DNA of 64,000 bases. It comes from Candidatus Zixiibacteriota bacterium. Lineage in GTDB: Bacteria > Zixibacteria > MSB-5A5 > GN15 > FEB-12. Of the stretch, positions 6,367 to 9,767 are shown piece by piece. The notes beneath the pieces are model-generated. The model did not search any database, was not told the DNA's origin, and saw nothing but the letters and a program-made list of their open reading frames with translations. The position numbers and the translations under genes are program-made. The stretch is taken from positions 10,986-74,985 of the forward strand of contig JAJRQO010000006.1 of assembly GCA_024280215.1 (NCBI GenBank), in the 5' to 3' direction. The number at the start of each line of letters is the position of its first letter. Within the stretch, counting starts at the first letter, position 1.

Positions 6367-6500
6367 ACAAATTATTTCTTGCATAAATAGATTTTAATTG
6401 TATATTTTGTTCATTATAGAGAATAACAATCCATTTACTACACTTATTCTCACTATTACGAAAAATTGAATCGAACAAATAAAGCATGTGGAGTAGGTTT

Positions 6501-7292
6501 ATGAAACAGAAGTACTTTGGTATAACTTTATGCCTAATCATTTTTACCGCTGGAATTGTAGCAGCATTTTCATCTGGTCCACCAGATGGTCGAACAGACG
6601 CACCTGGGCAAAGCAACTGTACTGTTGGTTGTCACTCATCATTTCCACTTAATTCAGGAAACGGCATTATAACAGTAACCGCCGCATTAAGTTATTCTCC
6701 AAATGATGTGATACCTATAACGGTCAATATTTCTCAAATGGGGCAATCGAGGTGGGGATTTGAAGCTACCATGCTTGACTTGAGTGGTAATCCAGTAGGA
6801 ACTTTTACAAATACAACTACTCGAACTCAAACCTCAACAACTTTAGGTATTCAATATATCAAACATACATCAACTGGTACAGATGCAGGGGTTGCAAATG
6901 CTTCTCTCGGTTGGCAGTTTACATGGACCGCTCCTGCTGTAAGTGCAGGGCATGTAAAACTGTATATAGCAGCGAATGCCGCTAATAATAATGGACTTAA
7001 TTCAGGTGATTTTATTTATACTGACGCTCTCATCATTGATGAAGCACCAGCAAGTTGTTGTATAGCAGATCGAGGGAATGTTGACGGAGGACCTGACAAT
7101 GGTACTTTGGCTGGTTCTATTGATATAGCCGACTTAGTCTACTTGGTTGCCTTTATGTTCCAGGGTGGAGCCCCACCACCATGTATTGAAGAAGCAAATA
7201 TCGATGGCTTGGGTGTTATTGATATTTCGGATTTGGTTGCTTTGGTTGGCTTTATGTTCCAAAACGGCCCTCCTCCTGCTCCATGTCTATAA
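6501..7292 (+). CDS. secreted protein: Reeler-like N-terminal domain with a CX3CH motif plus a C-terminal Cys-bracketed dockerin-like module
   Basis: The ATG at 6501 is preceded by GGAG, and there is a signal peptide (MKQKYFGITLCLIIFTAGIVAA). N-terminal motifs are SSGPPDGRTDAPGQSNCTVGCHS and WQFTWTAP...LYIAANAANNNG. The C-terminus (7056..7289) has two repeats of the form xDG..IDI(A/S)DLVxLVxFMFQxG..PxC. Confidence 0.7.
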   Translation: MKQKYFGITLCLIIFTAGIVAAFSSGPPDGRTDAPGQSNCTVGCHSSFPLNSGNGIITVTAALSYSPNDVIPITVNISQMGQSRWGFEATMLDLSGNPVGTFTNTTTRTQTSTTLGIQYIKHTSTGTDAGVANASLGWQFTWTAPAVSAGHVKLYIAANAANNNGLNSGDFIYTDALIIDEAPASCCIADRGNVDGGPDNGTLAGSIDIADLVYLVAFMFQGGAPPPCIEEANIDGLGVIDISDLVALVGFMFQNGPPPAPCL

Positions 7293-7317
7293 TTCGTCCA
7301 AGAAAATAACAACAATA

Positions 7318-7350
7318 ATAGCTGAATTAATACAATTCAGCTATTATTTT
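7318..7350 (+). terminator. rho-independent terminator
   Basis: An 11-bp stem atagctgaatt / aattcagctat with a 6-nt loop, followed by a T-rich tail (tatttt). Confidence 0.6.
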
Positions 7351-7456
7351 GAATTTGACAATATGATTTTTTCTCTTATATTTCCAATTACACTTCTGCT
7401 CAAAAGAGTATATACTACATTAAGTAAAAATATTTTTAACGATAATGGGACATTAC

Positions 7457-9715
7457 ATGAAAACATCAAACAAATATCTTATTGGAATAATTGTATTTAT
7501 TCTATTTACTCCTCTGATGTCATTTGCACAACTTTCAAAAAGTAGCACACCAAAAAGTTTTACACAAAACCTCAATTTGACTGTACCCACCTTTTCAACT
7601 GGAACGGTAGATGTGCAACAATTGCTTATAGAAGATGACGCAGTGGAAAAACAGGGAGTACCTCAACGGTTTGGGTTTCCATTTGATGTAAATCTCAATC
7701 TTAACAATTCAGGTAGCTGGCAAAATTTTCCAGATGGAAGTAGAATCTGGACTTTATCAATTGTATCAACTGATGCTAAGTCGATAAATTTGCTCTATGA
7801 TAATTTTTGGCTTCCTGAGGGAGCAGAATTATTTATTTATAATAAAGATAGATCAATGGTCATCGGTGCCTTTACATCAAAAAACAATAAAGCACATAGA
7901 AAATTTGCTACTGCTCCTGTTCAGGGTGATGAAATCATATTAGAACTCAACCTTTCACCTGAAGTAACCTATCCAGGTGAAATTTCAATCTCACGAGTGG
8001 TTCATGCGTATAGAAATATTTTTGATAAAATGGATAAAAATTTTGGAGGCTCAGGCTCTTGTAATAATAATGTAAATTGTCCTGAAGGAGCCCCTTGGCA
8101 AGATGAAATTAACTCAGTCGCAATGATAATATTGGGCGATGGATTCAGATGGTGTTCGGGCTCAATGATTAACAATGTCAGACAGGATTTAACCCCATAC
8201 TTTCTTACAGCTGACCATTGTCTAAACAGTCCAGAGACATTTATATTTATGTTTAATTATCAATCCCCGACTTGTACGAATATTGATGGACCAACGACAA
8301 TGACAATTCAAGGGTCGACACTGTTGGCAAATAATGGCTTTTCAGACTTTGCATTATTGCTCTTAGATGAAACTCCTCCTGATTCGTTTAATATTTTTTA
8401 CTCAGGTTGGTCAAATATAAATACCTCCGCAACAACATCGGTTGGTATTCATCATCCTGCTGGAGATATAAAGAAAATATCGTTTAATAACAATCCTATT
8501 TCTTCAACCAGTTACTACTCTACCTCATCAGGTGATAATTCTCATTGGCGAGTTGATAATTGGGAAGATGGCACCACCGAAGGTGGTTCATCAGGTTCAC
8601 CTCTCTTTGACCAAAACCATCGCATCATCGGACAACTCCATGGAGGAAATGCTTCATGTGGTTCGATTACTGATGATTGGTATGGAAAATTTGCTGCCTC
8701 TTGGGACGGTACTGCATCATCTAGTCGCCTACGTGACTGGCTTGACCCTGACAACACAGGTGCTACCACCATGGATGGAATTGACGCTAATGGTCTAACT
8801 TTCAGCGCCGATACAATTGTCGGTTGGATTCCTATGGATGTACAATTTACAGCATCATCAATTACCCCTGTCGACACATGGGCATGGGATTTTGGTGATG
8901 GTTTTGTTGACTCTGTACAGAATCCATTTCATTCTTACAATTCTCCAGGTGCTTATGACGTCAGACTTGATGTCAGCTCTGGAGGTGTACCAAGTTTTAG
9001 ATTAAAAAATAACTTCATCATAGCCTTAGCTGATACTTTAGTAGAAACCGATATCGAAAGCACTCCAGCAACTCAAATTATTGTTACAGTAAACGCCACC
9101 AATAATATACCTTTGGATAAAATCATTATCCCTATCGAATATGCGGGAAATTTAGGGCTTACATTTGATTCAATGTCGATTATTGGTTGTCGTACTGATA
9201 ATTTTGAAGTCGTTGATTTTATTCATTTTGATACTTGGTTTAGCAGAATGGTTGTTCGGGTTCAGGCTTCAATTGCAAATTCTTCTATTGAACTCCCTGT
9301 TGGTTCGGGACCAATTCTAAAATTATATTTTAATATTGATGGAGCTGCTCAACCATCGGATACAACAACTTTGCTAATGGATGGTTACACTTCTGGCTCT
9401 AACACATATCTTCCAACATTTTCTGGAACACTTTTGGAATATCAACCTGAGATTCATTCAGGTGTTATATCAATAGTCTCCTCTTGTTGTGTAGGAATTA
9501 CTGGCAATGTTGATAATGACCCGTTAGATAATATCGATATTTCAGATTTAGTTACATTAGTCGCATATATGTTCCAAAGTGGGACTGCACCAGATTGTAT
9601 CGAAGAAGCAAATATCGATGGGTCAACTGTCGAACCACTAATTGATATTTCTGATTTAGTCATTTTAGTTGCTTATATGTTCCAGTCAGGTAGTGCACCA
9701 TCAAGTTGTCCATAA
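7457..9715 (+). CDS. secreted multidomain serine endopeptidase (S1, lysyl-endopeptidase-like) with PKD-like, cohesin-like and dockerin-like modules
   Basis: Signal peptide MKTSNKYLIGIIVFILFTPLMSFAQ. The catalytic His lies in LTADHC and the catalytic Ser in GGSSGSPLFD. There is a PKD-like WAWDFGDG motif. A cohesin-like beta-sandwich segment runs VTVNATNNIPLDKIIIPIEYAGNLGLTFDS...GPILKLYFNI. The C-terminal CC...C dockerin-like module is at 9485..9712. The ORF also allows a start at 7445. Confidence 0.8.
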   Translation: MKTSNKYLIGIIVFILFTPLMSFAQLSKSSTPKSFTQNLNLTVPTFSTGTVDVQQLLIEDDAVEKQGVPQRFGFPFDVNLNLNNSGSWQNFPDGSRIWTLSIVSTDAKSINLLYDNFWLPEGAELFIYNKDRSMVIGAFTSKNNKAHRKFATAPVQGDEIILELNLSPEVTYPGEISISRVVHAYRNIFDKMDKNFGGSGSCNNNVNCPEGAPWQDEINSVAMIILGDGFRWCSGSMINNVRQDLTPYFLTADHCLNSPETFIFMFNYQSPTCTNIDGPTTMTIQGSTLLANNGFSDFALLLLDETPPDSFNIFYSGWSNINTSATTSVGIHHPAGDIKKISFNNNPISSTSYYSTSSGDNSHWRVDNWEDGTTEGGSSGSPLFDQNHRIIGQLHGGNASCGSITDDWYGKFAASWDGTASSSRLRDWLDPDNTGATTMDGIDANGLTFSADTIVGWIPMDVQFTASSITPVDTWAWDFGDGFVDSVQNPFHSYNSPGAYDVRLDVSSGGVPSFRLKNNFIIALADTLVETDIESTPATQIIVTVNATNNIPLDKIIIPIEYAGNLGLTFDSMSIIGCRTDNFEVVDFIHFDTWFSRMVVRVQASIANSSIELPVGSGPILKLYFNIDGAAQPSDTTTLLMDGYTSGSNTYLPTFSGTLLEYQPEIHSGVISIVSSCCVGITGNVDNDPLDNIDISDLVTLVAYMFQSGTAPDCIEEANIDGSTVEPLIDISDLVILVAYMFQSGSAPSSCP

Positions 9716-9736
9716 AAACATATTAAGAAATTATTC

Positions 9737-9767
9737 AAGCTGAATTCTTTTGAGTTCAGCTTTTTTT
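9737..9767 (+). terminator. rho-independent terminator
   Basis: The stem aagctgaa / ttcagctt is followed by seven T residues. Confidence 0.75.

Follow-up and report, generated by a model that had tools for sequence, protein, structure and literature searches.

A divergent, cysteine-rich dockerin-like module at the C termini of two neighboring Zixibacteria exoproteins, with cohesin-fold domains as its probable docking partners

Why do two neighboring genes for exported proteins of an uncultured bacterium end in nearly the same short peptide, and what could that peptide bind? The question arises in a window of 64 kb, the whole stretch of DNA analyzed here, from contig JAJRQO010000006.1 of a Candidatus Zixiibacteriota bacterium (all coordinates are window positions on the + strand). 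Two adjacent open reading frames (ORFs) on the same strand, 6486-7292 (gene 1, 268 amino acids [aa]) and 7445-9715 (gene 2, 756 aa), have as their C termini a module of 78 aa (module 1, 7056..7289) and one of 76 aa (module 2, 9485..9712), respectively. We consider it probable that these modules are divergent dockerins on Sec-exported proteins, which plug into cohesin-fold sockets and thereby serve the assembly or tethering of exoproteins.

The two tails are closely related. Translation of 7056-7295 and 9485-9718 gave exactly the peptides listed in a preliminary description of this DNA, each stopping no more than one residue short of the stop codon. The close alignment reported there also stands, with 46/80 identities (58%) and an E value of 3e-28 in BLASTP, far beyond chance, as does the shared DNA, since the 26-nucleotide stretch tgtatYgaagaagcaaatatcgatgg was found in both modules. 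A six-frame motif scan of the window returned exactly two copies of the module with two internal repeats in each, and module 1 was recovered by a local family hidden Markov model at an E value of 3.5e-32. As had been described, both modules hold two copies of a Ca-loop-like segment followed by a helix (xDxD...IDIxDLVxLVxxMFQxG), and the CC at the start, the Cys at each repeat end and the Pro-rich tail are real and kept in relatives. Module 1 runs from the CC through a 21-residue loop 1 with its helix, a Cys and a 12-residue loop 2 with its helix to the Pro-rich tail and a final Cys. Module 2 consists of the CC, a 14-residue loop 1, helix 19-30, Cys38 and a short helix 39-42, followed by a 15-residue loop 2, helix 55-66, the tail and Cys75. 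Inside each module, the two helices hardly differ (IDISDLVTLVAYMFQSG and IDISDLVILVAYMFQSG; consensus IDISDLVxLVAYMFQ), a symmetry that would be compatible with a dual binding mode as in type I dockerins, and in this dockerin subtype each helix leads into a conserved [YF]MFQxGxxPxxC tail.

To what family does this double loop-helix belong? A word-indexed homologue search recovered only three short proteins for module 2 and none for the cohesin region upstream of it. We therefore rely on profiles: profile A3, built from five four-Cys modules and run exhaustively over 1.84 billion cluster representatives (50% identity), gave 14,548 matches at an E value of ≤1e-3, 2,793 at ≤1e-10 and 29 at ≤1e-30. 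The top match, P0004, consists of nine tandem copies, eight of which were assigned to Dockerin_1 by Pfam (E value of 1.9e-66). Among 113 relatives scanned with Pfam, 35 matched Dockerin_1 (PF00404), 15 matched EF-hand_7 and 10 matched TSP_3; for isolated close four-Cys modules, Dockerin_1 was detected in only 20 of 91. The homology of the window modules to PF00404 is thus transitive, since their relatives match this model though the window copies do not. Scanning both proteins and the isolated modules with Pfam and NCBIfam yielded no dockerin, EF-hand, type IX secretion system (T9SS) or other sorting model. Both modules gave the same marginal match (E value of 0.047) to the last ∼55 positions of NCBIfam NF045500 (Omp28_seleno, “Omp28-related selenoprotein”), which suggests that the C terminus of NF045500 contains a dockerin-like tail.

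When profile A5, comprising 63 module sequences, was searched against all PDB sequences at an E value of ≤1, 16 of the 17 matches were dockerins; the best of them (4fl4_A, E value of 0.0033) aligned over both repeats, the scores being weak throughout, and the sole nondockerin match was calmodulin (E value of 0.82). The fold agrees with this. An AlphaFold2 model of module 2, computed from a 91-sequence alignment, reached a pLDDT of 96.3 and a pTM of 0.84 and showed helices at 19-30, 39-42 and 55-66 as well as a beta-bridge between residues 5 and 74. Foldseek placed dockerins at all of ranks 1 to 22 against the PDB (probability up to 1.00), including Doc48S 2MTE, 4DH2, 5NRK and entries of the 1OHZ family, with template modeling (TM) scores of 0.57 to 0.73 by query and up to ∼0.79 by target and root mean square deviations of 1.7 to 4.3 Å (best, 1.7 to 3 Å). 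EF-hand proteins (calmodulin and S100) gave TM scores of only 0.2 to 0.3 against the same model, at E values above 1; with these values and no profile match for the window modules, an EF-hand pair (PF13499) was rejected. The modeled geometry is that of the dockerin double loop-helix, and the dockerin-like reading of the preliminary description is borne out by distant sequence homology, fold and context. Given the dockerin fold and the distant but consistent sequence similarity to dockerins, we conclude from sequence and model that the module is a divergent dockerin homologue beyond the reach of the curated Pfam model.

The cysteines set this subtype apart and follow a regular pattern. We counted the Cys columns over 363 aligned module instances in the order first N-terminal, second N-terminal, middle and C-terminal. 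All four were present in 171 instances and none in 66, while 34 instances had only the first and the last (C..C) and another 34 only the last (...C). Where the N-terminal CC doublet occurs, the middle Cys is present 178 times and missing 7 times; where there is a single N-terminal Cys, it is missing 48 times and present 13 times. This parity and covariation, together with the modeled bridge between residues 5 and 74, suggests that the four cysteines form two disulfides, one clasping the N terminus to the C terminus and the other linking the inter-repeat Cys with the second of the N-terminal cysteines. The termini of dockerins have to be joined by an “intramolecular clasp”, and those described are noncovalent, held by stacking or by electrostatic or hydrophobic contacts (PMC3821032); one made of disulfides would vary this known theme. 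The loops vary as well. Loop 1 has 14 residues in 141 of the 171 four-Cys modules, and loop 2 has 12 residues in 58 of them and 14 in another 58, while the loops of Cys-free relatives are mostly 12/12 residues. Residues of the ligand type are conserved at N/D in positions 1 and 3, D/S in position 5 and D in positions 9 and 12 (commonest patterns, NDDDD or DDSDD), making Ca2+ binding by the loops plausible. A set of metagenome loci (L063-L076) encodes orthologue-like proteins of ∼720 to 730 aa with the same cohesin and a dockerin that has 12-residue loops and two cysteines (C-GD...C); judged by sequence, this two-Cys dockerin appears to represent the ancestral state, with a single clasp, from which the four-Cys module of the window arose.

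A candidate socket lies directly next to module 2. The preliminary description had marked a cohesin-like domain at 9021-9484 of gene 2, and its fold bears this out: we delimit a beta-sandwich of 161 residues (9002..9484) with a linker-less junction to the dockerin. In the AlphaFold2 model of residues 520-756 of protein 2, from a 13-sequence alignment, an all-beta domain precedes the dockerin helices (mean pLDDT, 83; pTM, 0.62), with most 10-residue blocks of the cohesin-fold domain at a pLDDT of 74 to 93. Against the PDB, the top 50 Foldseek matches of this domain were all cohesins (E values from 3.7e-10 to 5e-6; target TM up to 0.82), spanning types I, II and III and the noncellulosomal Archaeoglobus fulgidus cohesin 2XDH (rank 9). 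At the sequence level, Pfam Cohesin (PF00963) had no match in protein 2 at an E value of ≤1, and profile A7 retrieved no cohesin from the PDB sequences, only a dockerin through its dockerin part.

The same arrangement recurs beyond the window. In ∼34 of 213 module proteins, the module is directly preceded by a cohesin-fold domain, and some of these proteins, at ∼253 aa, consist only of a signal peptide, the cohesin-fold domain and the module. The window and the genome loci (632 kb) contain 98 dockerin ORFs and 28 cohesin ORFs, with a dockerin directly downstream in 26 of the latter. The two apparently cohesin-only ORFs, L004 and L013, were considered as anchors and set aside: L004 is frameshifted and cut by a contig end, and L013 is an N-terminally cut, distant cohesin. 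In a search of metagenome contigs from the cohesin side, aimed at ascertainment bias, all cohesin ORFs not cut by a contig end had a C-terminal dockerin directly after them, within a small sample and with a search pattern that reaches close relatives only. Many of these cohesin-dockerin (Coh-Doc) proteins have ∼720 to 730 aa, like protein 2.

The preliminary description had left open whether the module occurs on other exoproteins, and profile and genome scans found it on many. Scanning a single genome for each GTDB species gave 61 module loci, mostly in Zixibacteria metagenome-assembled genomes (MAGs), 13 of them in JAJRXM01 alone; the loci outside Zixibacteria fell into MAGs labeled Ignavibacteriales, one Planctomycetales MAG and one Thermoplasmatota-labeled MAG (12 loci). 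No fewer than 15 dockerin ORFs lie in the retrieved loci of one Zixibacteria MAG. In 193 of 213 proteins, at most 12 residues separate the end of the module from the C terminus, and the N termini are generally signal-peptide-like; the exceptions are tandem arrays of three to nine modules and a few N-terminal copies. In two proteins (P0017 and P0036), four modules are followed by a genuine T9SS C-terminal domain (CTD). The cargo of the relatives includes PKD, FG-GAP, beta-helix/NosD, TSP_3, DUF7901, peptidases C1 and S8 and CARDB, and the public names of family members are either missing or describe the cargo. This agrees with the earlier remark that a cellulosome context is lacking in the window, as the cargo bears no cellulosome signature and single, dockerin-fused cohesins were the only ones in the ∼0.7 Mb of loci searched, an absence that is provisional.

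Two further observations concern the family at large. Proteins composed of a signal peptide and three to nine tandem modules include a cargo ORF at L035 (511 aa, six modules) as well as P0004 (nine), P0005, P0009, P0016, P0017, P0036 and P0040; in several of them the modules are joined by a “DCTC..P” linker, and it is unusual that such proteins are poly-dockerins and not poly-cohesins. The Thermoplasmatota-labeled MAG, JAUWIE01, has at least 22 dockerin ORFs in its 12 loci (L043-L060), among them five consecutive Coh-Doc genes (L043, 2023-6866), and in its dockerins the Cys pattern is mirrored (C...C...CC, ending DCC) and the “GPDI” loops have 13 residues. Either these genes were transferred horizontally into an archaeon or the MAG is misbinned.

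Which function the module has on its cargo may be read from what replaces it. The cargo domain of gene 1 (6537..7028, residues 18-181) belongs to the NCBIfam family “choice-of-anchor V” (NF041895, E value of 8.8e-28), a name that we take to mean that the same cargo occurs with alternative C-terminal anchors. We sorted the C-terminal ends of the 120 best homologues of this domain (P0157-P0276), all of ∼200 to 330 aa. T9SS-type CTDs (PF18962 and/or PF13860) were present in 67 of them and the dockerin-like module in 20, only 4 of which were detected by PF00404; IPTL-CTERM (PF18203) accounted for 2 and Big_7 (PF17957) for 3. The remaining 28 had neither a Pfam match nor a dockerin module, and several of these end in a hydrophobic helix and a basic tail. 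This cargo is thus found with at least four kinds of end, namely, the T9SS CTD, the dockerin, IPTL-CTERM and a transmembrane helix with a basic tail. Judged from these sequences, the dockerin occupies the anchor slot of choice-of-anchor V cargo, and because it stands where the cargo homologues mostly carry a T9SS sorting domain, a role in surface tethering or assembly is supported. Among the roles that had been offered earlier, that of an assembly or surface-tethering tag is therefore the best supported by the ends of the cargo homologues, while that of a sorting tag is the least likely, given modules that lie upstream of a T9SS CTD, in tandem or at the N terminus.

From these observations, we propose the following course of events. 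The signal peptide would carry the protein out of the cytoplasm, and two disulfides could close the module, one as a covalent clasp between its termini and one between the second N-terminal Cys and the inter-repeat Cys. The two acidic loops would bind Ca2+, as the conserved N/D at ligand positions suggests despite loops of more than 12 residues, and the two near-identical helices would dock onto a cohesin-fold module. Because the only cohesins found are fused to dockerins, Coh-Doc proteins could act as adaptors or chain links with one socket and one plug each, which dockerin-only proteins such as protein 1 might cap or attach to. Since a dockerin-only gene adjoins a Coh-Doc gene here, genes 1 and 2 are possibly a cognate pair, with the dockerin of gene 1 binding to the cohesin of gene 2. 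Poly-dockerin proteins, some with T9SS CTDs, could be multivalent hubs. In this way, a Zixibacteria-type organism that is not cellulolytic would assemble or tether, by noncovalent contacts, its proteases and its Reeler-like, beta-propeller, beta-helix and PKD exoproteins, with the dockerin taking the slot that a T9SS sorting domain holds in orthologous cargo.

Several points weigh against this proposal. Neither window module matched the Dockerin_1 or EF-hand profiles, even at an E value of ≤1, although the preliminary description had looked to these profiles for confirmation. The loops of the window copies are noncanonical (14/15 residues in module 2 and 21/12 in module 1), and ligand position 5 of module 1 is a Gly in loop 1 and a Leu in loop 2. 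Neither a free cohesin nor a multicohesin scaffoldin nor a cohesin-plus-anchor protein was found among the genome and metagenome loci, and the essentially constant, linker-less fusion of this cohesin subfamily to its own dockerin also fits a packing in cis. A dockerin alone cannot carry a protein over the outer membrane, and Ca2+ binding, the disulfides and the binding to cohesin are all inferred.

The constant fusion bears on the main alternative, in which the cohesin fold is the structural partner of its own dockerin, much like the X-module of type II/III X-module-dockerins, or forms an intramolecular or reciprocal-dimer clamp, while dockerin-only proteins bind another receptor. The linker-less dockerin after the cohesin in 26 of 28 locus ORFs and in every untruncated metagenome ORF, the lack of free or tandem cohesins in the loci searched and the pTM of 0.62 of the two-domain model all speak for such an arrangement. 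Yet the upstream fold matches dockerin-binding cohesins and not X-modules, and with 98 dockerin to 28 cohesin ORFs in the same loci, most dockerins have no cis partner, so that we regard this alternative as unlikely. A further alternative is a Ca2+ module that works independently of cohesin, as an element for folding, stability or binding to a matrix (polysaccharide or mineral surfaces, or Ca2+ cross-linking) and not as a docking tag. Tandem arrays of three to nine modules and N-terminal placements would suit this role, as would the matches of some relatives to EF-hand Pfam models and the co-occurrence of TSP_3 Ca-binding repeats in 10 of 113 relatives. However, the significant structure and sequence matches are all to cohesin-binding dockerins, with EF-hand proteins at TM scores of 0.2 to 0.3, the module is strictly associated with cohesin folds, and it replaces anchoring signals on orthologous cargo; a cohesin-independent element is accordingly quite improbable.

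That replacement, which on choice-of-anchor V cargo concerns T9SS CTDs and IPTL-CTERM, and a position at the extreme C terminus in nearly all proteins could also be taken to mean that the module is a signal for secretion or sorting, perhaps removed by a T9SS CTD-like, exosortase-like or sortase-like system. Against this, Pfam and NCBIfam gave no T9SS, PEP-CTERM or other sorting match, and the fold is helical and not a beta-sandwich, without a transmembrane helix and basic tail. The module moreover occurs upstream of genuine T9SS CTDs (P0017 and P0036) and in internal arrays. The arrays, the N-terminal copies and the four-module proteins that end in a T9SS CTD rule out the module itself as a T9SS-type signal. 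The preliminary description had named, as one outcome that would overturn the dockerin-like reading, that the module proves to be a known sorting domain such as a T9SS CTD; this did not occur, PF18962 and TIGR04183 being unmatched and the model helical. A C-terminal sorting signal is thus the explanation to which we give very little credence, and docking to cohesin-fold domains remains the reading that we prefer.

That both proteins are exported through Sec follows from their N termini. Read from the sequence, both start with the parts typical of a signal peptide, a basic n-region and a hydrophobic core that lead to an AxA-like cleavage site (MKQKYFGITLCLIIFTAGIVAA|F in protein 1 and MKTSNKYLIGIIVFILFTPLMSFA|Q in protein 2). 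Gene 1 (6486..7292), as taken from the ORF list, encodes a signal peptide, the cargo domain and the C-terminal dockerin-like module; the public call (P0157) starts at Met6 (nucleotide 6501) and is 100% identical over 263 aa. The cargo domain contains a conserved Cys-x3-Cys-His stretch (NCTVGCHSS), and some of its relatives also match Pfam Reeler (PF02014). Gene 2 (7445..9715) encodes, according to the ORF list, Pfam and Foldseek, a signal peptide, an N-terminal region, a trypsin-like peptidase domain (8156..8632, residues 238-396; Pfam Trypsin_2, E value of 1.9e-08), a PKD domain (8795..8980, residues 451-512; PKD_4, E value of 1.2e-09, and PKD, E value of 1.5e-07), the cohesin fold and the module. 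Within residues 1-237 (7445-8155), ∼200 residues ahead of the trypsin-like domain have no Pfam or NCBIfam match; they are perhaps a propeptide, or else an N-terminal domain of a new kind. Protein 2 shares 74% identity over 618 aa with a protein of the Zixibacteria MAG JAJRXM01 (L007), which points to a Zixibacteria-type origin of the window, and its orthologues L003 and L007 both lie at contig ends.

The two genes look like separate transcription units. Gene 1 is followed by a terminator-like hairpin with a 15-bp stem and a T-rich run (7314..7348), gene 2 is preceded by a strong promoter-like TTGACA-16-TATATT (7355..7382; 11 of 12 positions), and a further terminator-like hairpin with a T-run follows gene 2 (9737..9762), its stem AGCTGAAtT resembling that of 7314-7348; all three, on the + strand, are consensus matches only. 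The near-identical stems after both dockerin genes (AGCTGAATT...AATTCAGCT and AAGCTGAATTC...GAGTTCAGCTT) may represent either a small repeated element or a type of terminator that the two genes have in common.

Extended to the whole family, the proposal becomes a good deal more tentative. Zixibacteria and allied uncultured lineages might have a cellulosome-independent assembly system of long-loop dockerins clasped covalently by two disulfides, obligate linker-less Coh-Doc units that polymerize head-to-tail or dimerize, and poly-dockerin proteins as inverted scaffolds. Through these parts together, proteases and adhesin-like proteins by the dozen would be held at the cell in place of T9SS anchoring; as a complete picture, we hold this to be rather doubtful. 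The subfamily nonetheless matters in several respects. Dockerin-cohesin pairs are the standard plug-and-socket of extracellular assembly and a tool of synthetic biology, and this subfamily comprises thousands of clusters, with dozens of its genes in each Zixibacteria genome. About four-fifths of it is missed by Pfam, so that annotation of the surface proteome of these uncultured sediment bacteria is systematically incomplete. If confirmed, the disulfide-clasped dockerin and the linker-less Coh-Doc unit would be useful building blocks, and the system would show how diderm bacteria of the Fibrobacteres-Chlorobi-Bacteroidetes (FCB) group tether proteases and adhesins without cellulosomes. Dockerin versus T9SS CTD on one cargo family is, in addition, a clean natural experiment on alternative anchoring.

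How does the module compare with known systems? With the type I dockerins of clostridia (Doc48S 2MTE, Cthe_0435 4DH2 and Xyn10B/XynY 1OHZ/2CCL; PF00404), it shares the duplicated loop-helix, the three-helix fold at TM scores of 0.7 to 0.78, the N/D Ca-ligand positions, the near-identical repeats and the C-terminal place on secreted enzymes. It differs from them in lying below Pfam detection and in having four conserved cysteines, a loop 1 of 14 residues in most four-Cys modules and a conserved YMFQGGxxP tail, and its cargo consists of proteases and Reeler-like, PKD and beta-propeller proteins instead of carbohydrate-active enzymes, with no multicohesin scaffoldin found in the loci searched. 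In X-module-dockerin dyads (CipA XDocII and CttA XDoc), a smaller, Ig-like beta-sandwich stands directly N terminal of the dockerin without a linker; the unit described here is likewise linker-less, which suggests a rigid unit, but its upstream domain has a cohesin fold and ∼155 to 161 aa. T9SS CTDs (PF18962/TIGR04183) share with the module the C-terminal slot on choice-of-anchor V cargo and likely the same outcome, retention at the cell surface, yet they are beta-sandwich secretion signals, whereas the module is a helical docking element with no match to their profiles.

Closer parallels exist outside cellulosomes. According to PMC9012536, which cites Peer et al. 2009, Bayer et al. 1999 and Haimovitz et al. 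2008, Bacteria as well as Archaea contain noncellulosomal cohesins and dockerins, usually without large scaffoldins, and archaeal cohesin-dockerin pairs were shown to bind in earlier work cited there. Archaeoglobus fulgidus and other non-cellulolytic prokaryotes, as presented in the same source, resemble our case in having cohesin and dockerin without a cellulosome or large scaffoldins, often in one protein; ours differs in its Zixibacteria/FCB lineage, its putatively Cys-clasped long-loop subtype, the obligate linker-less Coh-Doc arrangement and the dozens of dockerin proteins per genome. Anaerobic methanotrophic (ANME) archaea have many extracellular dockerin and cohesin proteins, for which a role in organizing surface proteins or cell-cell contacts was proposed (PMC9012536), and thus provide another example of large numbers of such proteins in sediment anaerobes. 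In ANME, however, one protein may hold as many as five cohesins, and there are substrate-binding proteins with a dockerin tag (PMC9012536), whereas single dockerin-fused cohesins and poly-dockerins are found here. Within the collection searched, a literature search for Zixibacteria together with dockerin found no paper linking the two. Dockerins outside cellulosomes are hence known, and what our analysis adds are the putative covalent clasps, the extended loops, the obligate Coh-Doc dyad and the exchange of dockerin and T9SS CTD on the same cargo.

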